NCBI GenBank assembly: GCA_049975385.1
Contig: JBNGDO010000001.1
Location: 2,600-66,599, forward strand
Source of the DNA: Anaerolineae bacterium
GTDB lineage: Bacteria > Chloroflexota > Anaerolineae > B4-G1 > SLSP01
Direction: 5' to 3'
DNA length: 64,000 nt
This document shows, piece by piece, positions 4,501 through 57,320 of the stretch (position 1 is its first letter; each line of letters begins with the position of its first letter). The notes beneath the pieces are model-generated. The model had not been told where the DNA came from and did no database searches. It was given only the letters and a program-made list of their open reading frames with translations. Made by a program: the position numbers and the translations under genes.

Positions 4501-5211
4501 GACGTAATGGTACCCTTCACGTAACTCGTTGAGATATGAGATGCGGGTTTTTTCTGTTGTCTTGGCCTTGACGCCGGATAACCCGGCTGGAAGCGTATCT
4601 CCGGTGGACCTGATTATGCGCGGCATCACCCATGCTCCCAACGCCATCATCCCTAACATACTGAGCCACACGATGATGATACTGTTGGGCGACAGTACTT
4701 TGTTCAGAGACTCCATACTCAACCCGGCGATGATACTACCGATGCTGCCCGCTGTGCCCAGGACGGGCACGATACGCTTGGCCGCTCGTGTGTCGTAGAA
4801 GCCGTTGATGTAAGTGAACCAGTGCGCGGTGAGAATGTCGGTCAGTGGAACGTATATCAACAGATAGAGCAAGGGGTAGGCAACGCGTGTGAGTCCTATA
4901 TTGAGCAGACCAAAGCCAATGAGGATGCCGGTTCCACCGATGAGCAAGATGGCGATCAAAAGCTTGTGACTGGCGATGCGATCGGCGAACGCGGTGTAGA
5001 TAGCGACTGCGGGTATGGAAAGGATGGCTCTAACCATAAAGAACCAGGGCAGTCCCTTCACGCCTACTTGTTCCAGGAAGGCGGCTGCGACGATGGTCTC
5101 GCCCCAGACCGCGCCAAGCGTGACTGCCAGCAGCATCGCATAGAGCAGGAGCAGCCGCGGCCACTCTTCCGATCGAACGTTGAACAGCTTGTTGAGGAAT
5201 TGCACCATAAT
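1534..5211 (-). CDS. Multidomain membrane protein: N-terminal ~12-TM TLC (ATP/ADP-translocase-like)/MFS transporter domain + PBS-lyase-type HEAT repeats + disordered Pro/Arg-rich linker + C-terminal cyclic-nucleotide-binding (CAP-effector) domain
   Basis: Part of the 1261-aa ORF 1534..5319. The likely start is the internal ATG at 5211 (MVQFLNKLF...), which is preceded by AAGGAAGGTG. The N-terminus has hydrophobic TM helices. HEAT-like E..VR..A..AL repeats follow. The C-terminus (FFQGMTIDQLK...GEANFF...TAVAIQDTLTLRL) is a cNMP-binding fold. The stop TGA at 1536..1534 overlaps the next ATG at 1541. Confidence 0.7.
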   Translation of the reverse strand: MMVQFLNKLFNVRSEEWPRLLLLYAMLLAVTLGAVWGETIVAAAFLEQVGVKGLPWFFMVRAILSIPAVAIYTAFADRIASHKLLIAILLIGGTGILIGFGLLNIGLTRVAYPLLYLLIYVPLTDILTAHWFTYINGFYDTRAAKRIVPVLGTAGSIGSIIAGLSMESLNKVLSPNSIIIVWLSMLGMMALGAWVMPRIIRSTGDTLPAGLSGVKAKTTEKTRISYLNELREGYHYVTQSRFLRWIATGTLVVVILLTFVGYQTSVIIVDKLQTTEAMANFYGLVTGVANLIMLPFQLFLLSRIIGWIGVGNAYLIFPAGNLAISAGLAFFPGLPMAAFGYFDSTAFYGNAGYQINSLLYNAVPLRIKGRAHAFIDGLVAPIGVFIGSILLLPPFVALRWFLPTLTLALAIGYIANALIVRRQYGQALVKMLEQEDYSFLLTQSVSELTVADPATLSKLREKLESSTSHELTVFMAQLISRIGGRDAIPILSQTAHAAPESHTRAAILDVLAAADLRGDAVRQLYLDFTNDPSGQVRQSAIVGLQQLAAPNDPQFLTQMSNMVNDPDINVLGQVLSVLAQSDQLYTLKPAADAFEALLTGDNAHYRAYGVRILGQIKSEQTLHRLMAYLDDPADEVRLEAALAIETAVQKTSLNDVVKTELEAKVSARLDDPVERTRRAALVILGRVGSRKTYPLIVDALTDTSPQVRETAAATLVALDKTIIPVIHPKLDSPNAQLRKMTAVVLSRINPKEFGPLIVGANITGNLLAIYGNYGLVEALEPCATHPGFAVLQNALREQSQRLTTEIFYLLSAIQDPNSVEIINDSLRSDNSRTRANAVEALESLTTPKTAELIAPLFEPDTPTSKLLTLSKETWDMEAPDTAEAIQKLATLPEDPWVRTMTVFALGQLGAALVPPTPKASSSPESPPTAPETEGRRRRRAAPKDLFAALDAPKTEAAQPDAPPADTEPAPRARRRPPADLFGALDGPKTETATAETTAVETPKLDAPPSSLSPSPSPPLTLTQIEELLVTALKDPEEEVRLAAQIAKRLINGVQTGFMKEDLMLSAIEKIIFLKEVPFFQGMTIDQLKILANVCEEEMYEEDTRIYNNDDPGGALYVVVNGRVGIEQEKRTGSFARLATIEAHSYFGEANFFDNSPHTTSAVAIQDTLTLRLRREPLIALARQNPEMSLALINVLSERLRESNDRIAALTRARPRQLNKLFDQYD

Positions 5212-9382: not shown

Positions 9383-9432
9383 GAATCATGATGAATCATG
9401 AATCATGAATCATGAATCATGATTCATGATTT
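9381..9432. repeat. Tandem heptanucleotide repeat (ATGAATC/ATTCATG units, ~7 copies) filling the whole 49-nt spacer between the cNMP-binding gene and the cyclase gene
   Basis: Reads atgaatcatgatgaatcatgaatcatgaatcatgaatcatgattcatgattta, with direct 7-nt periodicity. On the minus strand it provides in-frame TGA stops two codons upstream of the cyclase ATG. Confidence 0.9.
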
Positions 9433-9868
9433 AGTAATAGGCGTTCAGGGCCATACGGAAACGTTTGGCGAGTTCGACCATGATATCCACGGCCATTTCG
9501 CCATCCCGCCTCAGCACGCCGAGGAAGTTCTCGCGGGGGAGAATGAGGCACTCGGTCGATTCGGTGGCGATAACCGATGCGGTGCGCGGGCCGTTGTCGA
9601 GCAGGGCTAACTCGCCAAAGAAGTCCCCAGGCCCAAAGGTGTTGACTACCGCCTTGCTGCCGTCGGCCTTCTCGCGCACGGCCTCGGCTTTTCCGGATGC
9701 AATGACGAAGAATCCGTACCCATCGCGGCCCTGCGGCACAATCACCTCGCCGGGAGCGCACGTACGATCGACGAAAATCCGCGCTAGGTTTTGGATTTGG
9801 CGCTTCTTCAAATTTTCAAAGAGGGGGACTTTACAGAGAATCTCGATTGCTCGTTCCAGGTCTGCCAT
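9431..9868 (-). CDS. Standalone cyclic-nucleotide-binding domain protein (145 aa)
   Basis: MADLERAIEILCKVPLFENL...GDFFGELALLDNGPRTASVIATE is the canonical CAP/cNMP-binding beta-barrel signature with no fused output domain. An AT-rich promoter-like region lies upstream (9890..9960). Confidence 0.85.
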   Translation of the reverse strand: MADLERAIEILCKVPLFENLKKRQIQNLARIFVDRTCAPGEVIVPQGRDGYGFFVIASGKAEAVREKADGSKAVVNTFGPGDFFGELALLDNGPRTASVIATESTECLILPRENFLGVLRRDGEMAVDIMVELAKRFRMALNAYY

Positions 9869-14280: not shown

Positions 14281-14390
14281 TATCAGCGATCAGCGGTCAG
14301 CCGGAACGGTAGGTGTTGGCGCATGGTTCAACCACCAAACCACCAAACCACCAAACCACCAAACCACCAAACCACCTAACCACCGAACTG
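14281..14390. repeat. Two adjacent short tandem repeats in the nagB 5' region: (TCAGCGN)x5 then (ACCACCAA)x5
   Basis: Reads cagcggtcagctatcagcgatcagcggtcagcc followed by caaccaccaaaccaccaaaccaccaaaccaccaaaccacctaaccaccgaac, directly upstream of the nagB RBS aaggagg. Confidence 0.85.
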
Positions 14391-26597: not shown

Positions 26598-27215
26598 ATG
26601 GACATCTGGCAGGGACAGTGGGTACGTCTGCGCGGCGTGGAGCCGGGCGACGCCGATGTTTTCTTCGCGTGGCGTGACAGTGATATGGGGCGCTTTACGG
26701 ATTTTGTAAAGTTCCCACATTCATTGGAAGCCACCCGCAAGCACTTTGAGAAGATGGCGACGTCGGAAGCAAAGGACGACGCTTTCGATTTCGTCATCGA
26801 GAACGAAGGTGGAGAAGCCGTCGGCATTATCAACTCACATACCTGTGACCGACGGGTGGGGTGCTTTATGTACGGCCTGGCGATTGGCCCGGATTATCGT
26901 CGCAGAGGCTACGCCGCCGAAGCCATCCTCCTGCTGTTGCGCTATTTCTTCGATGAACGCAATTACCAGAAGGTCTCGGCGACAGTCTATTCGAACAATG
27001 AAGCCTCACAGCGCCTCCACGAGCGTCTGGGGTTTACGCTGGAGGGCCGCATCCGCCGCGTGGTCTTTACGCTAGGCCAGCACTTCGATGAGCTCCACTA
27101 CGGGATGACGGTGGAAGAGTTTCGGGCGAATAAGCGAATGAGCGAATGGATGAATCAGCGAATGGATGAATCAGCGAATGAGCGAATAGAAGAATTCCCA
27201 ACCACCAATCGCTGA
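26598..27215 (+). CDS. GNAT family N-acetyltransferase (RimJ/RimL-like) with repeat-encoded C-terminal extension
   Basis: Start at MDIWQGQWVRLR, after aggaggggg. The acetyl-CoA motif is RRRGYAAEAILLLLRYFF. The last ~30 aa (ANKRMSEWMNQRMDESANERIEEF...) are encoded by GCGAATN heptamer repeats. Confidence 0.75.
   Translation: MDIWQGQWVRLRGVEPGDADVFFAWRDSDMGRFTDFVKFPHSLEATRKHFEKMATSEAKDDAFDFVIENEGGEAVGIINSHTCDRRVGCFMYGLAIGPDYRRRGYAAEAILLLLRYFFDERNYQKVSATVYSNNEASQRLHERLGFTLEGRIRRVVFTLGQHFDELHYGMTVEEFRANKRMSEWMNQRMDESANERIEEFPTTNR
27126..27188. repeat. Tandem heptanucleotide repeat (GCGAATN x9) inside the 3' end of the GNAT gene
   Basis: Reads gcgaataagcgaatgagcgaatggatgaatcagcgaatggatgaatcagcgaatgagcgaatag. 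Confidence 0.85.
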
Positions 27216-38125: not shown

Positions 38126-41100
38126 ATGGCAGACTATCGTATCAAAGCACACCCGATTCTTTCGGTCCTTTCCGATGATTTCGTCGAATTTACCTGGCAG
38201 GGCGAGCCATTGACGGCGCGGCGCGGGGAGATGATCGCGTCGGCGTTGTTCGCGCACGGCATCCACGTCTTCGGGCATCATCACCACGATAGATCGCCGC
38301 AGGGCATCTTCTGCGCGAACGGGCAATGCTCGCAGTGTCTCGTCATCGCCGACGGGCTGCCGGTGAAGGCGTGTATGACACCGGTGACGACTGGTATGGT
38401 CGTCGAGCCTTTGGAAGGATTGCCTGTGTTGCCGCCAGTGGCGGAGCCACCACCCTCACGTGCCTTGGAGACGGTGGACGCGCCCGTGCTCATCATCGGT
38501 GGGGGACCGGCAGGGATGTCGGCGGCGATCCAGTTGGCGGAGTACGGTGTCCGCGTGTTGCTGGTGGATGACAAGGATCGCCTCGGCGGGAAGCTGGTCT
38601 TGCAGACGCACCGCTTCTTCGGCTCCGTGGACGCCGTCTACGCGGGCACACGCGGCATCGACATCGCCACACGGCTCGAAGAAGACGTCCGCCGCCACGA
38701 CAACATCGAAGTCTGGCTCAACAGCACCGCATTGGCGGTTTTTAGCGACGGCAAAGTGGGGATTCTGCGGGGCGCGGATCATGAATCACGAATCACGAAT
38801 CATGAATCACGGATTACGGATCACGCATCACGCCTCACGCGTCACGAGCCGGAGTATGTTCTGGTTCACCCCGAAATCCTCCTCGTCGCCGCGGGCGCGC
38901 GGGAGAAATCGCTGACGTTCAAGGGGAACACGCTGCCGGGTGTCTATGGCGCGGGGGCGTTCCAGACGTTGGTGAACCGCGATTTGGTGCGGGCTGCCGA
39001 GCGGCTGTTTATCGTCGGTGGTGGGAACGTGGGGTTGATCGCGGGGTATCACGCGCTTCAGGCCGGTATCGAGGTGGTGGGGCTGGTCGAGGCGCTGCCG
39101 GAATGTGGCGGGTACAAGGTCCACCGGGACAAGCTGGCGCGTTTTGGCGTGCCGATTTACACATCGCACACAATTCTGTCTGCCAACGGCGACCCCGCCA
39201 ACGGCGGTAACCATGTGGAATCGGTGACAATTGCCCAGGTCGATGAGCATTTCCAGCCAATCCCTGGCACGGAGCAATCCTTTGCCTGCGACACGGTGCT
39301 CATCGCCGTGGGCCTCGATCCGGTGAACGAGTTTACGCAGAAGGCGCGGGACTTCGGGATGACGGTGTTCGACGCGGGCGACGCTCAGGAGATTGCGGAA
39401 GCCTCGGCGGCGATATTTTCCGGCAAGATTCGCGGGCTGGAGATCGCGCGGGCGCTCGGCGCGACGGAGGACGCCGTCCCCGATGAGTGGCGGCGCACTG
39501 GCGACATCCTCAAGTCGCATCCCGGCGCGGTGATTCCGGAGCGCATTCCCGAACAGGAGGAGGGCGTTTTCCCGGTCTTCCACTGCTCGCAGGAGATTCC
39601 GTGCAATCCCTGCACCTCGGTCTGTCCGCAGCAGTTGATCCACATTGACCCAACCGACATCCGCGGTATCCCTACTTACCTGGGCCTGGAGGCGGAGAAG
39701 GCGTGCCTGGGCTGTGAGCAATGCGTCGCCGTGTGCCCCGGGCTGGCGATCACGTTGGTGGATTACCGCAAGGACGCCGAGATGCCGACCGTGACGTTGG
39801 CCTACGAGTTTCTAGCGAGCCGCATCGCCGTTGGCGACCGGGTGACAGCGCTCGATACGGTGGGCAACGTTCTCGGCGAGGCAGAGGTAACAAGTGTGCG
39901 TGCGATCAAGCGCAACGACCGCACTGTGTTGGTCAAATTGCGCGCGCCGAAGGCGATTGCCAAGCTGATCGCCGGGCTGCGTGTGCAAGACCTGGCGGTC
40001 GGTTCGGCGCTGAGCGACGAAGTTGTGAATCTGGACGACGACGCGGATGCAGACATCCGAATCGTCTGCCGCTGCGAGCGCGTGACGGCGGGCGAAATCC
40101 GCGCGCTGATCCGCAAGGGCTACCGCGACGTCAACGAGATCAAGGCCGTCACGCGCGCCGGGATGGGCGCTTGCGGCGGCAAAACGTGCAGCGCGCTCAT
40201 CCTACGTCTCTTCCGCGAGGAAGGCATCCCCCTCGACGAAGTCACCCCAAACATTCCGCGTCCCCTCTTCGTCGAGGTTCCGCTGGGTGTCTTTGCGGCA
40301 AATCAGCGAATGGGCGAATCAGCGAATAGCGGATTACGAGATACGAATCACGAATCACGAATTACGGATCGCGCATCACGCATCACGCATCAAGGCCCCC
40401 TTACTCCTTACTCCGTACTCCCTACTTCTTCTGATGTGATCATCATCGGCGCCGGAAGTGTGGGCGTGCCGGCGGCGCTGGCGATGACGCGGATAGGGCT
40501 GAAGGTGCGCGTGTTCGACGGGGCGGCGAGCCAGGGACAGGGTTCCAACAAATCGGCGATTGGCGGCGTGCGCGCCACACACTCCGATCCGGCGAAGATT
40601 CGCCTGTGCCTGCGCAGTCTGGAGATTTTCTCGACGTGGGAGGAAACCTACGGCCACAACATCGAGTGGACGACCGGGGGCTACACCTTCGTCGCCTACC
40701 GCGAGCGCGAGGCGCAGACGCTCAAGAATCTGCTCAAGGTCCAGCATACCTACGGCCTCGACATCGACTGGTACGACCGCGATGATTTCCTCCGGATCGT
40801 TCCCGATGTGAACCGCGAGGGTCTCCTCGGCGGGACGTTCTCCCCGCACGACGGGCATTGCTCGCCTTTGCTGGCGGGGCACGCTTTCTACGATGCGGCG
40901 AAAGCAGCGGGCGCGCTCTTCCACTTCGACGAGCCGGTGACGGAGATTCTGGTCGACGACACGATCACAGGCCGGCGCATACGCGGCGTGCGGACGAACC
41001 GGGAAACCTACCTCGCGCCAGTCGTCGTCAACGCTGCCGGGGCGTGGGCGCGGGCCGTCGGGCGATGGGTGAACATGGATCATCCCGTGCAACCTGAGTC

Positions 41101-41587
41101 ACACGAGGCTGGAATCACCGAACCGGTGGCGCATTTCCTCGATCCGATGCTGGTAGACATCCGCCCCGCGCCGGGATCGGCCAACTACTACTTCTTCCAA
41201 TTGCGGGATGGGCAGGTCGTTTTCTGCATCACGCCGCAGCCGAGCATCGCGGGCTTCGATCGACGCGAGACGAGCGTTTTCTTGCCGCAGGTTGCGTCGC
41301 GTATGGTGGATTTGGTCCCGCGTCTGGCGAACCTTCGCGTGCGGCGCACTTGGCGCGGCCTCTACCCGATGACGCCGGACGGCTCGCCGCTCGTCGGTTG
41401 GGCGCGGGAGGTGAGCGGTTATCTGATGGCGATCGGCATGTGCGGGCAGGGCTTCATGCTCGGTCCCGGCCTGGGCGAGCTGCTGGCGCGGATGGTCGCG
41501 CAGGAGGAGCTGTCGCCGGAAGATCGGGAGGTGTTGAAGGTGTTGTGGCCGTACCGGGCGTTCGCGGGGGAGGAGGCGTTGAAGTAG
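38126..41587 (+). CDS. Fused HcnA/HcnB/HcnC-like (opine oxidase / heterotetrameric sarcosine oxidase / PDH1-like) FAD and Fe-S oxidoreductase, 1153 aa
   Basis: Residues 1-95 form a 2Fe-2S domain (CANGQCSQC...C). A pyridine-nucleotide-disulfide oxidoreductase follows (VLIIGGGPAGMSAA ... FIVGGGNVGL). Next come two 4Fe-4S-like motifs (CSQEIPCNPCTSVCP, CLGCEQCVAVCP) and a BFD-like 2Fe-2S (CRCERVT...GMGACGGKTC). After a heptamer-encoded linker lies a DAO-family FAD oxidase (VIIIGAGSVGVPAALAM...). There is no stop codon anywhere in the frame. Confidence 0.75.
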   Translation: MADYRIKAHPILSVLSDDFVEFTWQGEPLTARRGEMIASALFAHGIHVFGHHHHDRSPQGIFCANGQCSQCLVIADGLPVKACMTPVTTGMVVEPLEGLPVLPPVAEPPPSRALETVDAPVLIIGGGPAGMSAAIQLAEYGVRVLLVDDKDRLGGKLVLQTHRFFGSVDAVYAGTRGIDIATRLEEDVRRHDNIEVWLNSTALAVFSDGKVGILRGADHESRITNHESRITDHASRLTRHEPEYVLVHPEILLVAAGAREKSLTFKGNTLPGVYGAGAFQTLVNRDLVRAAERLFIVGGGNVGLIAGYHALQAGIEVVGLVEALPECGGYKVHRDKLARFGVPIYTSHTILSANGDPANGGNHVESVTIAQVDEHFQPIPGTEQSFACDTVLIAVGLDPVNEFTQKARDFGMTVFDAGDAQEIAEASAAIFSGKIRGLEIARALGATEDAVPDEWRRTGDILKSHPGAVIPERIPEQEEGVFPVFHCSQEIPCNPCTSVCPQQLIHIDPTDIRGIPTYLGLEAEKACLGCEQCVAVCPGLAITLVDYRKDAEMPTVTLAYEFLASRIAVGDRVTALDTVGNVLGEAEVTSVRAIKRNDRTVLVKLRAPKAIAKLIAGLRVQDLAVGSALSDEVVNLDDDADADIRIVCRCERVTAGEIRALIRKGYRDVNEIKAVTRAGMGACGGKTCSALILRLFREEGIPLDEVTPNIPRPLFVEVPLGVFAANQRMGESANSGLRDTNHESRITDRASRITHQGPLTPYSVLPTSSDVIIIGAGSVGVPAALAMTRIGLKVRVFDGAASQGQGSNKSAIGGVRATHSDPAKIRLCLRSLEIFSTWEETYGHNIEWTTGGYTFVAYREREAQTLKNLLKVQHTYGLDIDWYDRDDFLRIVPDVNREGLLGGTFSPHDGHCSPLLAGHAFYDAAKAAGALFHFDEPVTEILVDDTITGRRIRGVRTNRETYLAPVVVNAAGAWARAVGRWVNMDHPVQPESHEAGITEPVAHFLDPMLVDIRPAPGSANYYFFQLRDGQVVFCITPQPSIAGFDRRETSVFLPQVASRMVDLVPRLANLRVRRTWRGLYPMTPDGSPLVGWAREVSGYLMAIGMCGQGFMLGPGLGELLARMVAQEELSPEDREVLKVLWPYRAFAGEEALK
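38777..38846 (+). repeat. In-frame heptanucleotide repeat inside the FAD/NAD domain, encoding DHESRITNHESRITDHASRLTRHE
   Basis: Reads gatcatgaatcacgaatcacgaatcatgaatcacggattacggatcacgcatcacgcctcacgcgtcacg. The reading frame avoids the TGA present in other frames. Confidence 0.85.
40301..40430 (+). repeat. In-frame heptanucleotide repeats (GCGAATN, GAATCAC, CATCACG, CTTACTC families) forming the linker between the HcnB-like and HcnC-like parts
   Basis: Reads aatcagcgaatgggcgaatcagcgaatagcggattacgagatacgaatcacgaatcacgaattacggatcgcgcatcacgcatcacgcatcaagg...ccttactccttactccgtactccctacttcttct. It encodes NQRMGESANSGLRDTNHESRITDRASRITHQGPLTPYSVLPTSS. Confidence 0.85.
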
Positions 41588-41591
41588 GCGA

Positions 41592-41646
41592 GGATGCAGG
41601 ATGCAGGATGCAAGAGTGTGATTGGATTGCCGGGTGGGGATTGAAT
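41592..41646. repeat. Heptamer repeat (GGATGCA x3) plus GATTGGA-type modules directly after the oxidoreductase stop
   Basis: Reads ggatgcaggatgcaggatgcaag gtgtgattggattgccgggtggggattgaatc. Confidence 0.75.
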
Positions 41647-41729
41647 CTTCACCAGTTAATGATATAATGAATTAAAGAATTTATGTGGAATTACAGAATT
41701 CTGTAAAGCCTGGTGAAAGGAGTTGTCTG

Positions 41730-42002
41730 GTGACTGTCAATATCAAGAATCAAGAGGTGGAGAGTTTATTGGACTCTGTCGTTCAATTGACCGGAGAAAC
41801 CAAAACCGCTGCAATCCGTCAAGCCCTGGCTGAACGGTTGGAGCGTCTCTCTTTGATGCGTGTGGTTCCCCAGGATGCGGCTCGGCTAGAGGCGTTTCTG
41901 CAAGACGAAATCTGGGCTAATATCCCAAAGCATCTGCTTGGAACGTCTTTGACTAAAGCGGAAGAAGAGGCTATTCTGGGCTATGGAGAGCATGGAATAT
42001 GA
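41730..42002 (+). CDS. vapB: VapB-like antitoxin (ribbon-helix-helix/Arc-type) of a VapBC pair
   Basis: The likely start is GTG 41730, preceded by aaaggag (the ORF track starts at ATG 41685). The fragment TKTAAIRQALAERLERL is typical of small antitoxins. Its stop overlaps the vapC start (ATGA at 41999..42002). Confidence 0.6.
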   Translation: MTVNIKNQEVESLLDSVVQLTGETKTAAIRQALAERLERLSLMRVVPQDAARLEAFLQDEIWANIPKHLLGTSLTKAEEEAILGYGEHGI

Positions 42003-42385
42003 TCGTTGATACTTCAGCGATTGCGGCGATCTTTTTTAAGGAATCCGGATATGAGGATCTGCTAGAGAAGCTCGGTCGTGCTCACGAGGTAGGGATCGGT
42101 GCGCCGACATTGGTCGAATGTGGCATTGTCCTGAGTGCGCGGTTGGGGCGCGATGCACGTGGAATGTTGTCTCGTTTCTTGGAAGAGACTCATGTGTTTA
42201 TTGTGCCCTTTGTTGATGTGCATTACAGTACGGCTGTAACGGCGTGGCAGAAATTTGGCAAGGGAAGACATCCTGCTGCATTGAATTTCGGCGATTGTTT
42301 GACCTATGCTGTTGCCAAGCTGGCGGGAGGCCCCCTGTTGTGTGTAGGCGATGACTTTTCGCAAACCGATCTGGAATTAGCGTAA
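41999..42385 (+). CDS. vapC: PIN-domain toxin VapC
   Basis: MIVDTSAIAAIF (first acidic D), NFGDCLTYAVAK and GDDFSQTDL carry the conserved PIN acidic residues. Length is 128 aa. Confidence 0.8.
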   Translation: MIVDTSAIAAIFFKESGYEDLLEKLGRAHEVGIGAPTLVECGIVLSARLGRDARGMLSRFLEETHVFIVPFVDVHYSTAVTAWQKFGKGRHPAALNFGDCLTYAVAKLAGGPLLCVGDDFSQTDLELA

Positions 42386-42430
42386 TCAGCTGGCCACCAA
42401 CAGACGCTTGTCGTATTTGAGAGCAACTAC

Positions 42431-42469
42431 AGGTGCGACGCACTTTCCGAAGTGCGTCGCACCTTTTAT
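42431..42469 (+). terminator. Rho-independent terminator after vapBC
   Basis: Stem aggtgcgacgcactt / agtgcgtcgcacct with loop tccga, followed by TTTTA. Confidence 0.8.
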
Positions 42470-42581
42470 GTCAGTAGTCTATTTTGGGGTATTTGATTAT
42501 AATGAAGGAGTGGGGTGGAATCCACTCCTTCATCTGTTATACGACAGGTAAGTGCGGATTAGCTGCTAGGAGAAATGACTA

Positions 42582-43373
42582 ATGAACGCTAACCGATTTG
42601 ATGAGTTTGTCCAATTACTGACTCAACTCCCGATAGATGTATGGCAAGCGGCAGTGCTGGAGGAGCCTGAGTGGAAATGGATGCTGCCTTTGTCGAAGGT
42701 GTGGGAATTTGGGCATTTTGCGGTTTTGTTTGTTGTTCTCGGACTGAACGATTACCAGACGAAAGGGAAAGCCGACGTTGGATACTGGCCTAAAGTGGTG
42801 CCTTTGATCCGCCAAGGATCTGAGCCGAAGGATCTGTTGCAATTAATTGATGTTCTGGAACCGTTTTTCATCAGAGAGCGATTCGGGCAAAACAAAACCA
42901 AAAGGCTCAAGCGATTTCTGGAAAGTAATCTTTGCCGTGAGATTTGGGTAAGCAGCCCTTCTTCACTTGCGGCAAATTTCGGACGAATTTGGCACTCCCT
43001 TGGACTTGCAATGAGGCAAAAGTCTACTGATAAAACGATAGCTTTTGCGATGAAGTGTTTGGCGCTTGCGCTTCTAATGGCTAATGAAACTAAGTTTGAC
43101 TTTGGAGCTATCCCAGTACCGGTGGATTCACGAATCCGAAATATCTCGACTCGTCTTGGCCTCACTAGCGGGGATGAAGCGACAGAACGTGAAAGGTGGC
43201 GTAGAGTGCTTGATCGCATTCGCGAATCACATCCTGAAATCACAATGGTACATCTTGATAGCCTTCTTTGGCAAATTGGCACTTTGTCTCCGCAAGAGAT
43301 GAAATCTCATCTCGTAAAACTTGGAAGTGGTAGTCTGGCACCGCGCATTTCTCAACTCTTCTACAGGTTTTGA
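42582..43373 (+). CDS. HhH-GPD-superfamily protein, probable AGOG-like N-glycosylase/DNA lyase (8-oxoguanine DNA glycosylase type); located in a low-GC island
   Basis: AFAMKCLALALLMANETKFDFGAIPVPVDSRIRNISTRLGL matches the glycosylase K...P-V-D-[ST]-x-I-x-R-[VI]-x-x-R-L-G pattern (EndoIII: PTIAVDTHIFRVCNRTQF) with a non-canonical hairpin. Local GC is ~45 % against ~62 % in flanking DNA. Confidence 0.4.
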   Translation: MNANRFDEFVQLLTQLPIDVWQAAVLEEPEWKWMLPLSKVWEFGHFAVLFVVLGLNDYQTKGKADVGYWPKVVPLIRQGSEPKDLLQLIDVLEPFFIRERFGQNKTKRLKRFLESNLCREIWVSSPSSLAANFGRIWHSLGLAMRQKSTDKTIAFAMKCLALALLMANETKFDFGAIPVPVDSRIRNISTRLGLTSGDEATERERWRRVLDRIRESHPEITMVHLDSLLWQIGTLSPQEMKSHLVKLGSGSLAPRISQLFYRF

Positions 43374-43415
43374 TACACCAAACTCAAGTAGTCATTACCG
43401 TATATAGGTGGGAAT

Positions 43416-43745
43416 ATGGAATTCACCGACCTTATTCAACGCGCTCTGTCAATTCGCAAGCTGTATAGCGAGTTTGAGGAACAAAACTACGGCACCTCCT
43501 GGACCAACGAAGAACTGGCCCTGGGTTTTGTGGGCGACGTTGGCGATCTGGTCAAACTTGTCATGGCGCAAAGCGGGCGTCGCACGATCCCCGATGCGGA
43601 AAGTAAATTGGCGCACGAATTGGCCGATTGTCTATGGTCCGTCATCGTTCTTGCCGATGTGCATAACATAGACCTGGAAGACGCCTTTTTACGAACAATG
43701 GACGATCTGAAAAATCACATCAAGAAGAATCTGGTTGTAGGATAA
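43416..43745 (+). CDS. MazG-like nucleotide pyrophosphohydrolase (small all-alpha NTP-PPase)
   Basis: 109 aa. WTNEELALGFVGDVGDLVKLVMA and AHELADCLWSVIVLADVHNIDLEDAF fit the MazG/HisE-like EExxE/D metal-binding helix layout. Low GC. Confidence 0.65.
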   Translation: MEFTDLIQRALSIRKLYSEFEEQNYGTSWTNEELALGFVGDVGDLVKLVMAQSGRRTIPDAESKLAHELADCLWSVIVLADVHNIDLEDAFLRTMDDLKNHIKKNLVVG

Positions 43746-43774
43746 CCGGAACATCTCACACGAAAGGACACACA

Positions 43775-45118
43775 ATGCAATCCAATATTACTCTCGACGA
43801 TCTGGCAAAGTTTGCGGCGGCCTTCGACGCCGATCCCAAGAACCGCCTGGCGGCGAACGCTGTGGCGCAGAACGATATCGCGGCGGTGGCGCTCAACCGC
43901 GAGAGCGTCAACCGCATCAATCACACCTACTCGCACCTCATCGAGACGCCGGAGGCGACGGACCAGGGCGCGACCGGGCGTTGCTGGATGTTCGCCGGAC
44001 TCAACGTGATGCGGCTGGCGGCGATCCAGAAGATGAACTTGAAGATGGAGAAGTTCGAGCTTTCTCAGGCCTACCTGATGTACTGGGACAAGCTGGAAAA
44101 GGCCAACTTCTTCCTGGAGAACATCATCGAGACGCGCGATGAACCGTTGGACGGGCGGTTGGTGATGTGGTTGCTCGCCGACCCGCTCCCCGACGCCGGG
44201 CAGTGGGATATGTTCGTGAGTCTGGTGAAGAAATACGGCGTCATCCCCAAAACGATGATGCCGGAGACGAAGAGCAGTAGCGCGTCGCGTCTGATGAATA
44301 GCCGGCTCGTCGCCAAGCTGCGCGAGTTCGCGCAAACGTTGCGCGATACGTCCACGCAGGGCGTCGATGTGGATGGCTTGCGGGAGACCAAGGCTGCGAT
44401 GTTGACGGACTTCCACCGCATGCTCACGATCCACTTCGGCAAACCGCCCGCCAGCTTCGAGTGGGCGTGGCGCGATAAGGACAAGGCGTATCATCTTCAC
44501 GGTGTGATCACGCCGCTGGATTTCTATGCGGAGTATGTCGGTATCGACCTGGACGATATGGTCTGCCTCATCAACGCGCCGACGCAGGACAAGCCCTACA
44601 ATAAGCTTTACACGGTGGCATACCTCGGCAATGTCGTCGGTGGGCAGCCGGTGCGTTATCTCAACGCCGATGTCAAAATCCTCAAGAAAGCGGCCGTGGA
44701 CAGCATCGTCGATGGACAGGCCGTTTGGTTTGGCAGCGACGTGGGCCAGATGCTGGAGCGGGATCTGGGCCTCCTGGATATGGATGTCTACGATTACGAG
44801 CTGGTGTATGGTGTACCGTTTGCCCTCGACAAGGCGGGGCGGCTGGACTATGGTCACAGCCGGATGACCCATGCGATGCTGCTCACCGGCGTCGACCTGG
44901 ACGAGACCGGGCGTCCGGTGAAGTGGCGCGTCGAGAACAGTTGGGGCACGAAACGCGGTGACGAGGGCTATATGTTGATGACCGATCGCTGGTTTGAGGA
45001 GTATCTCTATGAGATCGCCGTGAGCAAGCGCTATCTCTCGCCTGACTTGCTGGCCGTTCTCGAGACCGAACCGGTCGTGCTCCCGCCCTGGGATCCGATG
45101 GGGGCACTGGCCCGGTAA
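43775..45118 (+). CDS. pepC: Aminopeptidase C / bleomycin hydrolase (peptidase C1B)
   Basis: The catalytic triad sits in QGATGRCWMFAGLN (Cys), HAMLLTGVD (His) and VENSWG (Asn). Length is 447 aa. Confidence 0.85.
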   Translation: MQSNITLDDLAKFAAAFDADPKNRLAANAVAQNDIAAVALNRESVNRINHTYSHLIETPEATDQGATGRCWMFAGLNVMRLAAIQKMNLKMEKFELSQAYLMYWDKLEKANFFLENIIETRDEPLDGRLVMWLLADPLPDAGQWDMFVSLVKKYGVIPKTMMPETKSSSASRLMNSRLVAKLREFAQTLRDTSTQGVDVDGLRETKAAMLTDFHRMLTIHFGKPPASFEWAWRDKDKAYHLHGVITPLDFYAEYVGIDLDDMVCLINAPTQDKPYNKLYTVAYLGNVVGGQPVRYLNADVKILKKAAVDSIVDGQAVWFGSDVGQMLERDLGLLDMDVYDYELVYGVPFALDKAGRLDYGHSRMTHAMLLTGVDLDETGRPVKWRVENSWGTKRGDEGYMLMTDRWFEEYLYEIAVSKRYLSPDLLAVLETEPVVLPPWDPMGALAR

Positions 45119-49469: not shown

Positions 49470-50033
49470 ATGCAGACTGCGGACAAGGTTTACGCCAGTA
49501 TCTGGCGGCGCATTGTCGCTTATCTCGTTGATTATGTGATTTCATTCGCAGTGCTTATTCCGCTTCAATATCTTTTTTCAGTTGTGACGCGTGGTTTCCC
49601 CTATAGCTTATTCAAAACCGGGCTACAAATTGAACTTTGGATTCTCCTGACTGTTTCGTTGCCGGTTTGGTTGTACTTCATTTTCAGCGAGCATTCGACT
49701 CACCAGGCTACCTTTGGAAAACGGCTGCTAAGGGTGCGGGTCACACGCGTCTCCGGCGAGAGAATGAGTTTTGCACAGGCCATCCTCCGCACTGCGATCA
49801 AGTTGTTGCCGTGGGAACTGACGCATCTCTCGCTGATGCTGCCTGTGCCTATGTGGTGGGATACAACGCCTAATCTACGCGCTGGAATCGTTATCGCGTA
49901 CGTTCTTGTCGGTGTGTATCTTCTGGTGATGTTGTTGAACAGCCGCCGCCAGAGCGTCCACGATATGATCGCGCGAACGGTTGTGGTAGAAGCGCCGAAG
50001 CATGAAGTGCTAACTTCGTCAGTTGAGGTGTGA
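49470..50033 (+). CDS. RDD-family membrane protein
   Basis: WRRIVAYLVDYVI is the RDD signature. It has three TM segments and is 187 aa long. Confidence 0.6.
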   Translation: MQTADKVYASIWRRIVAYLVDYVISFAVLIPLQYLFSVVTRGFPYSLFKTGLQIELWILLTVSLPVWLYFIFSEHSTHQATFGKRLLRVRVTRVSGERMSFAQAILRTAIKLLPWELTHLSLMLPVPMWWDTTPNLRAGIVIAYVLVGVYLLVMLLNSRRQSVHDMIARTVVVEAPKHEVLTSSVEV

Positions 50034-50035
50034 TG

Positions 50036-50704
50036 ATGTGCGGACGTTTTACTTTGGGTGTGAATCTTGATGATCTGATCGAGGCGTTCCCGGACTTTAC
50101 GTTCCCGCCGGAGACGGAGCCGCGCTACAACATCGCGCCGACGCAGAACGTGATGGTCGTCCCCAACAACACTGCCGGGCACGTGAGCTTCTTTCGGTGG
50201 GGGCTAATCCCCTCTTGGGCCAAGGACCCCGCCATCGGCAACCGGCTAATCAACGCGCGCGGCGAGACACTGGCGGAAAAGCCGTCGTTCCGCGCAGCCT
50301 ATCTCCGACGGCGCTGTTTGATCCTCGCGGATGGTTTCTACGAATGGCAAGTGGTACCCGGCAGCAAGACCAAGCAGCCGATGTATATCCAACTGGCGAC
50401 GAAAAAGCCGTTCGCCTTTGCCGGATTGTGGGAACTCTGGCGGCCCGACGACACGCCCATCCTCTCCTGCACCATCATCACCACCGAGCCGAACGCCCTG
50501 CTCGCGCCGATCCACAACCGCATGCCCGTCATCCTGCCGCCGGACGCCTACGCCTTGTGGCTCGATCCCGCCGAACAGAAACCCGCCGCGCTCAATCACC
50601 TGCTCACGCCCTATCCCGCCGGCCTGATGACCGTCTATCCCGTCTCCCGCCTCGTCAACAGCCCGTCGAACGACACACCCGATGTGGTAATCGGTGAGCA
50701 GTAA
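50036..50704 (+). CDS. SOS-response-associated peptidase (SRAP/YedK/HMCES family) abasic-site processing protein
   Basis: The N-terminal MCGRF places the catalytic Cys at position 2 (third ATG of the ORF). FRWGLIPSWAKD and LADGFYEW are conserved SRAP motifs. Confidence 0.85.
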   Translation: MCGRFTLGVNLDDLIEAFPDFTFPPETEPRYNIAPTQNVMVVPNNTAGHVSFFRWGLIPSWAKDPAIGNRLINARGETLAEKPSFRAAYLRRRCLILADGFYEWQVVPGSKTKQPMYIQLATKKPFAFAGLWELWRPDDTPILSCTIITTEPNALLAPIHNRMPVILPPDAYALWLDPAEQKPAALNHLLTPYPAGLMTVYPVSRLVNSPSNDTPDVVIGEQ

Positions 50705-57225: not shown

Positions 57226-57320
57226 GCAGGATGCAAGAATCAGCGAATCAGCGAATGACTGAATCGGCGGATCACGGATCACGAATCCCCAATTACCAGT
57301 TACCGATTACCAATCATAGA
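57226..57320. repeat. Composite heptamer repeats (GGATGCA, GCGAATC, GGATCAC, then CCAATTACCAGTTACCGATTACC module) between the isomerase gene and uxuA
   Basis: Reads gaggcaggatgcaagaatcagcgaatcagcgaatgactgaatcggcggatcacggatcacgaatccccaattaccagttaccgattaccaatc. Confidence 0.85.

Follow-up and report, generated by a model that had tools for sequence, protein, structure and literature searches.

The GO system of Escherichia coli consists of MutM/Fpg, MutY and MutT. On paper, it resembles part of a 64,000-nucleotide stretch of DNA from an Anaerolineae bacterium (Chloroflexota; contig JBNGDO010000001.1, positions 2,600 to 66,599), referred to here as the window, in which a low-GC (guanine-cytosine) stretch at about 41.6–43.75 kb carries a vapBC toxin-antitoxin (TA) pair, a gene for a DNA glycosylase of the AGOG family and mazG, a gene for a MazG-like NTP pyrophosphohydrolase. 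The likeness is that of a lesion glycosylase lying beside a nucleotide-pool sanitiser, and the original prediction described the stretch as a portable GO system. The two differ in that the glycosylase is an AGOG here and Fpg in E. coli, the sanitiser is a MazG protein rather than the Nudix enzyme MutT, no MutY is seen here, and the genes show no evolutionary coupling. We consider it likely that the low-GC stretch is a composite, in which a TA insert and a separate cargo insert occupy a changeable slot beside a resident mazG gene.

The closest described relatives of the MazG-like protein are iMazG, encoded by a Vibrio integron cassette (2Q5Z/2Q73), and DCTPP1/RS21-C6. Like the window protein, they have a single domain of about 110 aa and paired acidic motifs; the window protein differs in that its first motif is D-x-x-D rather than E-x-x-E, and its gene belongs to the chromosomal backbone rather than to a cassette. 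iMazG and DCTPP1/RS21-C6 prefer dCTP, dATP or 5-modified dCTP and are not Nudix MutT enzymes; we know of no characterised close MazG relative with 8-oxo-dGTP hydrolysis as its main activity.

AGOG was described in a 2012 review as exclusively archaeal (PMC3397491). The characterised enzymes (Pae, 1XQO/1XQP; Pab, 7OLB; Tga, 7OU3) share their fold, catalytic Lys/Asp pair and purine pocket with the glycosylase of the window. The catalytic pair consists of a lysine of the HhH hairpin (K140 in Pae-AGOG, K142 in Pab-AGOG) and an aspartate of the GPD region (D172 and D174, respectively) (PMC9638937). In the purine pocket, Phe146 and Trp212 provide stacking and Lys149 and Asp208 contact the base edge (Pab numbering), and O8 is contacted by Trp69 (Pae) (PMC9638937, PMC3397491). 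A glutamine (Q31 in Pae, Q24 in Pab) accepts a hydrogen bond from N7-H and tells 8-oxoguanine (8-oxoG) from guanine, and Pae-AGOG is inactive with the Q31S substitution (PMC9638937, PMC3397491). The characterised AGOGs carry this Gln where the clade of the window has Glu, Gly or Ser, and the window clade differs further in being usually paired with a DUF6884 protein. Single HhH glycosylases have also been found to protect bacteria against phages with 7-deazaguanine DNA (10.1101/2025.10.29.685425, a 2025 preprint). The window enzyme resembles such Dag/Brig1-type anti-phage glycosylases in being a stand-alone member of the HhH superfamily and in its position, which is variable, low in GC and rich in TA genes and can hold a nuclease gene instead; it differs from them in that its pocket is like that of 8-oxoG enzymes and in having no integron integrase, attC-like site or phage link.

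The lineage scaffold and its two variable positions

The loci of this lineage share a scaffold comprising a gene for a flavoprotein oxidoreductase of 1,140–1,153 aa (1,153 aa in the window), a conserved non-coding element of about 58 nt, mazG and, usually, pepC. The scaffold continues with an LVIVD-repeat gene, a 161-aa gene, an M23 peptidase gene and a SRAP gene. Two positions vary, one between the oxidoreductase gene and the element and the other between the element and mazG. In the window and in L059, the first is occupied by vapBC and the second by the AGOG-like glycosylase gene. L085 has vapBC and then a DUF5678/retropepsin-like pair in the first position and nothing in the second; L075–L077 have a DUF2281/PIN pair followed, beyond the element, by a gene for a GIY-YIG nuclease of the LEM-3 type; L080 has a DUF2281 antitoxin alone and an empty second position. 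In L079 the first position is empty and the second holds the GIY-YIG nuclease gene, in L066 the first is empty and the second holds three orphan genes (GC 0.39–0.49), and in L067 another upstream gene is followed by an empty second position. Both positions are empty in L081, in which about 90 nt, containing the element alone, separate the oxidoreductase stop codon from the mazG start. The GIY-YIG nuclease (242 aa; 5255–5983 in L075 and 4256–4984 in L079) is also encoded in the glycosylase position of L078, for which the upstream position was not read; its gene is split there (721–1062 and 2540–2977) by a gene for a 427-aa Mutator/IS256-type transposase. Over these arrangements, the TA pair and the cargo assort independently. 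The vapBC pair had been proposed to stabilise the glycosylase gene. The lineage gives no evidence of such a role, as L085 has the same vapBC but no glycosylase, and the slot of the glycosylase is filled independently of the TA pair.

The GC content of the window is 0.63–0.68 upstream of 41650, 0.44–0.52 over 41650–43750 and about 0.60 past 43750. The drop of about 2.1 kb that had been claimed was borne out by the profiles of GC and of GC at third codon positions (GC3), as it is the deepest 2-kb trough of the window (0.480 at 41501–43500 and 0.483 at 41751–43750; mean 0.584, standard deviation 0.026). GC3 is 0.48 for vapB, 0.50 for vapC, 0.44 for the glycosylase gene and 0.57 for mazG (z-scores of -3.1, -2.8, -3.7 and -1.9), against 0.71±0.07 for 31 long open reading frames (ORFs). 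These four ORFs all lie on one strand, at the coordinates first given for them, and the identities proposed for their products (VapB, VapC, AGOG-like and MazG-like) were all upheld above the Pfam gathering thresholds.

The trough is contiguous and sharp-edged, as would be expected if 41.6–43.75 kb had been acquired in one recent transfer with a uniformly low GC content as its signature. Such a single island is nevertheless extremely improbable. The empty scaffold of L081 already has mazG at a GC content of about 0.5, L085 and L067 also contradict a single island, and the element separates two positions within the stretch that are occupied independently of each other. Furthermore, the genes of the stretch have 77–92% amino-acid identity between the window and L059, about equal to that of the flanking genes; since they diverge about as the flanks do, the vapBC-glycosylase-mazG arrangement is old rather than a recent arrival, and its low GC content has persisted. 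The trough is made up of two inserts and a resident mazG gene with an intrinsically lower GC content. The GC content of mazG was 0.49–0.52 in all four genomes tested, with flanks at 0.60–0.63, and mazG is the sole low-GC gene in L067; a value of about 0.50 is a property of the gene itself in every lineage genome examined. With the same downstream backbone, mazG is found without the glycosylase gene in L066, L067, L075–L081 and L085, with its position and low GC content kept. It appears to be a resident housekeeping gene of the backbone rather than island cargo. The backbone of the window is closer to that of L066 (94% identity for MazG, 94% for pepC) than to that of L059 (77% and 92%), and the glycosylase is shared with L059, not with L066.

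The same comparisons bear on the portable GO system, in which the genes for 8-oxoG excision and 8-oxo-dGTP destruction would be acquired horizontally as one cassette and held by vapBC. The glycosylase gene and mazG adjoin in the same direction, 42 nt apart and with no terminator between them, and low GC and GC3 are common to all four genes. The arrangement recurs on 24 contigs of a sister lineage (L059–L061/L083), with identical synteny and a glycosylase of 80% identity, and some MazG homologues lie near repair or house-cleaning genes (AlkD-like and Ham1 in L074, GIY-YIG in L075–L079, SRAP downstream in the backbone). However, searches by tblastn, with a profile hidden Markov model (HMM) for MazG-like proteins and with iMazG and RS21-C6 as phmmer seeds found a MazG-family ORF within ±6 kb of the glycosylase in 0 of 58 other genomes and in none of the four loci (L062–L065) of P0016, a glycosylase homologue of 67% identity. 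Conversely, the glycosylase is adjacent in three of the 64 MazG-like loci with readable neighbours, namely the window, L059 and L083, which represent one syntenic lineage. The check on co-occurrence across genomes thus failed for the proposed cassette, with none found outside one lineage, and the adjacency reflects vertical inheritance of one arrangement rather than independent co-occurrence. The homologues also differ in number (more than 4,399 for MazG and 102 for the AGOG-like protein), and the closest characterised relatives of the MazG protein are iMazG and DCTPP1, not 8-oxo-dGTPases of the MutT type. A portable GO system is, on this evidence, very unlikely. The glycosylase and MazG are not an evolved pair; outside the lineage, the conserved partner of the glycosylase clade is a DUF6884 (YaaA-like) DNA-binding protein.

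The MazG-like all-alpha NTP pyrophosphohydrolase itself (109 aa; 43416–43745, + strand) matches PF03819 with 27.4 bits (threshold 22), and its nearest solved relatives are iMazG (2Q5Z, E 4.2e-6) and DCTPP1/RS21-C6 (E 1.5e-4 to 2e-3). Over 25 homologues (62–94% identity), its acidic motifs D41-x-x-D44 and E68-x-x-D71 and the residues E32, E33 and E88 do not vary, which makes it very probable that the protein is active as an NTP pyrophosphohydrolase. Its homology gives no specific pointer to 8-oxo-dGTP, as far as can be judged from the relatives that it matches. In a distant MazG clade, mazG lies in a run of genes for a xanthine-dehydrogenase-type molybdoenzyme, a DHH-CBS (family-II) pyrophosphatase, MazG, XdhC and an SPFH protein; xanthine dehydrogenase was found next to it at 23 loci, family-II pyrophosphatase at 10 and XdhC at 8, and pyrophosphatase, xanthine dehydrogenase and XdhC form the prevailing conserved context of MazG. 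This hints at a purine-nucleotide house-cleaning role. The run was seen in L093, L097, L106, L108, L109, L114, L116, L125, L126 and L140–L144, among others, and small TA-like gene cassettes with HepT and DUF5615 lie directly after mazG in this clade. A link between MazG and DNA repair was considered and set aside, as GIY-YIG, AlkD-like, PF01261 TIM-barrel and Ham1 genes lie next to a minority of MazG loci only. About 6 kb downstream in the window, at 50027–50692 (+ strand), there is a gene for a SRAP (YedK/HMCES-type abasic-site-binding) homologue that is 89% identical in L085. SRAP is a possible functional neighbour of an enzyme generating abasic sites by lyase action, and it is also present in genomes without the glycosylase.

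The conserved element at the edge of the cargo slot

The element (42474–42533, + strand) forms the 5' edge of the cargo slot. In the window it comprises GTAGTCTATTTTGGGGTATTTGATTATAAT, with a TATAAT hexamer at 42498–42503, and a 12-bp hairpin, and its general sequence is GTAGTCTATTTTGGGGTATTTGGCTATAATGAAGGAGTGG-N8-CCACTCCTTC. It is 85–92% identical in every lineage locus, and the surrounding non-coding DNA cannot be aligned. It lies at 4865–4921 in L059, 1463–1523 in L066, 4970–5030 in L067, 5173–5232 in L075, 4173–4238 in L079, 425–485 in L080, 346–402 in L081 and 4912–4975 in L085, constantly between the oxidoreductase gene and mazG, with cargo genes directly downstream of it. The perfect 12-bp hairpin reported at 42500–42535 was found again, with arms at 42502–42513 and 42522–42533 that overlap the last two bases of the perfect TATAAT. 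In an alignment of nine distinct sequences, 98% of the cells of the hairpin are paired, and all seven of the changes are one-sided and lead to G·U pairs; covariation is not demonstrated, because there are no double compensatory changes. A T-run follows the hairpin in the empty sites, so that the element there resembles a terminator.

On the basis of its sequence and position, the element may be a promoter/operator of the mazG operon, a terminator of the upstream gene or a small leader RNA, and we infer the promoter role. No relevant match was obtained at E ≤ 1 in an Rfam search of the intergenic hairpins. The element is not a dispersed repeat or miniature inverted-repeat transposable element with a second copy in the window. 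Nor does it appear to contain an upstream ORF, as the 26-codon frame of the window is stopped in L066 and has other lengths elsewhere, which marks the region as non-coding. The gap between the glycosylase gene and mazG (42 nt) is followed by one of 29 nt between mazG and pepC, and no terminator-like site was found on the + strand over 42470–43900. The glycosylase gene, mazG and pepC are likely to be co-transcribed, because these gaps are short and no terminator precedes pepC.

According to the composite reading, TA pairs would enter after the oxidoreductase stop codon and ahead of the element, as vapBC would have done in the window, and single cargo genes, such as that for the glycosylase, between the element and the ribosome-binding site of mazG. 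The element would then drive the glycosylase gene, mazG and pepC jointly, and the two enzymes may be co-expressed. The damaged guanine would be flipped into the pocket of the glycosylase, with stacking by F155 and W230, base-edge contacts by K158 and D226 and an O8 contact by W69; the base would be removed and the abasic site then nicked through a Schiff base with Lys151, assisted by Asp182.

The glycosylase clade and its DUF6884 partner

The cargo gene of the window (42582–43373, + strand), which has its own AGGAG ribosome-binding site, encodes an HhH-GPD DNA glycosylase/abasic-site lyase of the AGOG family (263 aa), which has 100% identity to a protein encoded on a 76.5-kb contig of an Anaerolineae metagenome-assembled genome. 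As had been proposed, the protein passes as an AGOG when scored against PF09171 (60.1 bits with a gathering threshold of 26.1; E 2.7e-16; residues 46–236). Its scores against four NCBIfam AGOG equivalog models are 47.6, 34.2, 24.2 and 16.9 bits, short of cut-offs of 240, 383, 368 and 474. Its sequence and profile matches in the PDB are AGOGs only; HalB was discarded as a PDB relative (E 0.35, not significant). An AlphaFold2 model of the protein (pLDDT 93.4, pTM 0.90) was compared with the PDB by Foldseek, and ranks 1–9 were all AGOGs (probability 1.0, TM 0.67–0.77), with the next match at E 0.76. The identity to the Pab, Pfu and Tga enzymes is 18–22%, no member of the clade exceeds 30% identity to the characterised AGOGs, and these are 57–66% identical among themselves. 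The clade can be regarded as a distinct AGOG subfamily because its identity to them is 30% or less and its scores lie far under the equivalog cut-offs.

The catalytic residues are kept as K151 (Lys in 99 of 102 homologues) and D182 (Asp in 100 of 102), and K151 aligns with the lysine mutated in the K142Q structure (7P8L). The purine pocket is also kept, as F155, W230, K158, D226 and W69, each present in at least 92 of the 102 homologues and identical in three canonical AGOGs. At the position of the Gln that reads N7-H, phmmer, the profile HMM and a MAFFT alignment all place Glu30; over the 102 homologues, this position is Glu in 71, Gly in 13, Ser in 7 and Gln in none. The carboxylate of a Glu could accept the N7-H bond. 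Judging from its pocket, the substrate of the enzyme is probably 8-oxoG or a close oxidised guanine, and this is the likeliest substrate because W69 is conserved.

A scan with the clade alignment, using one GTDB genome per species, yielded 58 loci (L001–L058), 31 of them in genomes of bacterial species and 27 in genomes of archaeal species. Identity between homologues from different phyla reaches 54–73%, a sign of horizontal transfer. At these 58 loci and at the P0016 loci L062 and L064, the genes immediately beside that of the glycosylase, 94 in all, were compared with Pfam, and the recurrent families were DUF6884 (PF21818; nine members at E ≤ 1e-5) and YaaA (PF03883; seven members). With an HMM built from the neighbours, 29 of the 58 genome loci were found to have a DUF6884-like ORF adjoining the glycosylase gene; 28 of these ORFs share its strand, and 27 lie within 200 nt of it, either up- or downstream. 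Examples lie at 1421–2149 in L014, 6810–7526 in L015, 5203–5895 in L001 and 1019–1465 in L012. The pairs come from more than a dozen phyla of bacteria and archaea, and apparent in-frame DUF6884-glycosylase fusions with no intervening stop codon are present in L016, L021, L040, L052 and L055. Most of the DUF6884-like neighbours contain the CxxxK and LSAxxG motifs given in the Pfam description. A BLAST-based clustering of neighbours had given no conserved glycosylase partner, a false negative in the light of the census by Pfam and HMM. The 64-kb window itself has no DUF6884 gene, and a literature search for DUF6884 gave no published description of an AGOG-like/DUF6884 pairing. According to the Pfam curators, DUF6884 has a relative in YaaA, a DNA-binding protein of peroxide stress, and the Bacillus subtilis protein YfjM binds abasic lesions. 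Such a relationship would fit a lesion-processing pair with the glycosylase.

In the Aquificaceae, the glycosylase gene lies in a conserved fabF-rnc-AGOG-ychF-thrS synteny, a housekeeping setting. The P0016 homologue (L062, 1018–1938, - strand; L063; L065; L064, 2435–3391) is followed by a convergent ARPP-1 (PF20208) gene, and on one of its contigs an rve-family insertion sequence (IS) integrase gene precedes it. In L001, a gene for a large serine recombinase lies 3.5 kb from that of the glycosylase.

A role in defence was also considered. The element-mazG position would then be a hot spot, the AGOG-like protein an anti-phage glycosylase excising modified guanines such as 7-deazaguanine derivatives, and the GIY-YIG nuclease and the orphan genes alternative effectors. 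The slot is variable and low in GC, its cargo is interchangeable and acts on DNA, and TA modules lie adjacent to it. The identity across phyla points to transfer, and the surroundings of some relatives include a large serine recombinase, an rve-family IS element, a GHKL ATPase or an SLFN/AlbA_2 gene. The altered residue, Glu30, is at the reader of the N7/C8 edge of the base, PADLOC models matched by the DUF6884 neighbours are the candidate PDC-M57A and, at a weak score, DpdC, and a precedent exists in the Dag glycosylases, some of which are near AGOG by structure (10.1101/2025.10.29.685425). On the other side, PADLOC 2.0 gave no significant match for the four proteins and 33 members of the clade, although this 2023 release predates the Dag preprint and presumably lacks Dag models. 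The phage origin that had been suggested for the cassette found no backing, as IMG/VR and phage records gave no match, and the one plasmid match was to a haloarchaeal megaplasmid, at 23% identity. In addition, the pocket is conserved, including W69, which would contact O8, and the Aquificaceae members lie in housekeeping synteny. The relationship of DUF6884 to YaaA, with one member binding abasic lesions, fits repair at least as well as defence. We therefore regard a defence role as unlikely. It is more doubtful still that the element-mazG gap is an integrase-free position of site-specific capture that swaps DNA-targeting effectors under a fixed promoter, with a Glu30-type clade, often alongside its DUF6884 partner, reading a foreign modified guanine, such as 7-deazaguanine, rather than repairing 8-oxoG.

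Several points weigh against the composite reading that we prefer, a slot with separate inserts beside a resident mazG gene and a glycosylase acting on oxidised guanine. Its support is sequence inference, drawn for both enzymes from metagenome assemblies. No insertion mechanism was found, with no flanking repeats, integrase or conserved cassette ends. No integrase-like gene was present among the Pfam hits of the lineage-locus genes or the locally called ORFs; the two hairpins lack the GTTRRRY core of attC and the cargo junctions share no repeat, no dedicated attC model having been run. The lineages number about eight and are all represented by metagenome assemblies, and insertion is not separable in them from loss or replacement. 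The TATAAT of the element is a mere consensus match, and a transcript starting right after it could not hold the whole hairpin. The Gln required in Pae-AGOG is a Glu in the window, and from the alignments 8-oxoG specificity is not assured. Finally, alternating cargo, low GC and neighbouring TA modules are also the look of a small defence hot spot.

The vapBC module, repeats and implications

The TA insert of the window begins with a sigma-70-like promoter (TTGAAT-16 nt-TATAAT, with TG ahead of the second hexamer; 41641–41668, + strand) that scored 10/12 in a consensus scan and is conserved in L059 and L085; it would drive vapBC. Between its -10 hexamer and the vapB start is a perfect 16-nt palindrome, TTACAGAATTCTGTAA (41691–41706), which matches its own reverse complement and, by analogy with type II TA modules, which usually regulate themselves, is a putative VapB operator. 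vapB (41730–42002, + strand) encodes an Rv0623-like antitoxin (PF07704; E 5.8e-15, 56 bits), with a GTG start at 41730 after a GGAG ribosome-binding site in an ORF whose longest form runs from 41685, and is 92% identical in L059 and 90% identical in L085. vapC (41999–42385, + strand), for a PIN-domain toxin (PF01850; E 4.4e-13, 50 bits), overlaps the vapB stop by 4 nt (ATGA, 41999–42002); its product has the four acidic PIN residues (D4, E40, D99 and D118) and it is 87–88% identical in L059 and L085. The terminator previously assigned to the island (42431–42469, + strand) is real, with a perfect 15-bp stem (42431–42464), a 4-nt loop and TTTTAT, but it closes the vapBC unit and not the island, and its hairpin also precedes the element in L085. 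With its PF07704 antitoxin and PIN toxin, 4-nt overlap, acidic tetrad and promoter-proximal palindrome, all shared with VapBC type II modules, this is an ordinary module of that type, and there is nothing notable about it.

A repeat block at 41592–41646 had been given as the left boundary of the island. There is a repeat at this point, but it is just a heptamer, AGGATGC, in 3.1 copies (41591–41612; Tandem Repeats Finder), one of many such arrays. It lies at the left end of the vapBC insert. In L059 and L085, both with the same vapBC, this block likewise comes after the stop codon of the oxidoreductase gene. No direct repeats were found at the junctions. An imperfect 18-nt inverted repeat (41613–41630/43777–43794; 15 of 18 positions complementary) brackets the whole low-GC stretch. 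It was rejected as a boundary, as its second arm lies within the first pepC codons and is conserved in genomes without inserts, and it is probably due to chance. The pepC gene (aminopeptidase C, Peptidase_C1_2; 43775–45118, + strand; PF03051, E 3e-179) is the first high-GC gene of the backbone and is 92–94% identical in L059, L066, L067 and L085.

Tandem heptamer and octamer repeats (ATCACGA in 10 copies, CGAATCA in 11, and others) are scattered over the window and recall the STRR-type repeats of cyanobacteria. Two arrays, at 38778–38847 and 40315–40392, are in frame within the oxidoreductase ORF (38126–41587) and give rise to 'HESRITNHESRIT' peptide inserts. Others lie at 9391–9429, 14330–14388, 27126–27187 and 57237–57287 in the window and at 9712–9942 in L085.

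A GO cassette would have been a new mobile module for the repair of oxidative damage, and it is not what is present here; selectivity of the MazG protein for 8-oxo-dGTP, if it were true, would partly rescue the idea. The genes of the stretch are members or variants of known families. What is modestly new is the Glu-type AGOG clade, its partnership with DUF6884 and the two-position slot with its element. AGOG, long held to be archaeal, has a distinct clade with Glu in place of Gln in both bacteria and archaea, and the partnership with a DUF6884/YaaA-like protein, together with the apparent fusions, suggests an uncharacterised two-protein module for lesion processing. A contiguous GC trough need not represent one acquisition, as mazG keeps a GC content of about 0.5 across the lineage genomes examined. 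The slot offers a small natural case of gene turnover at one locus, in which DNA-acting cargo is swapped and TA pairs pile up upstream.

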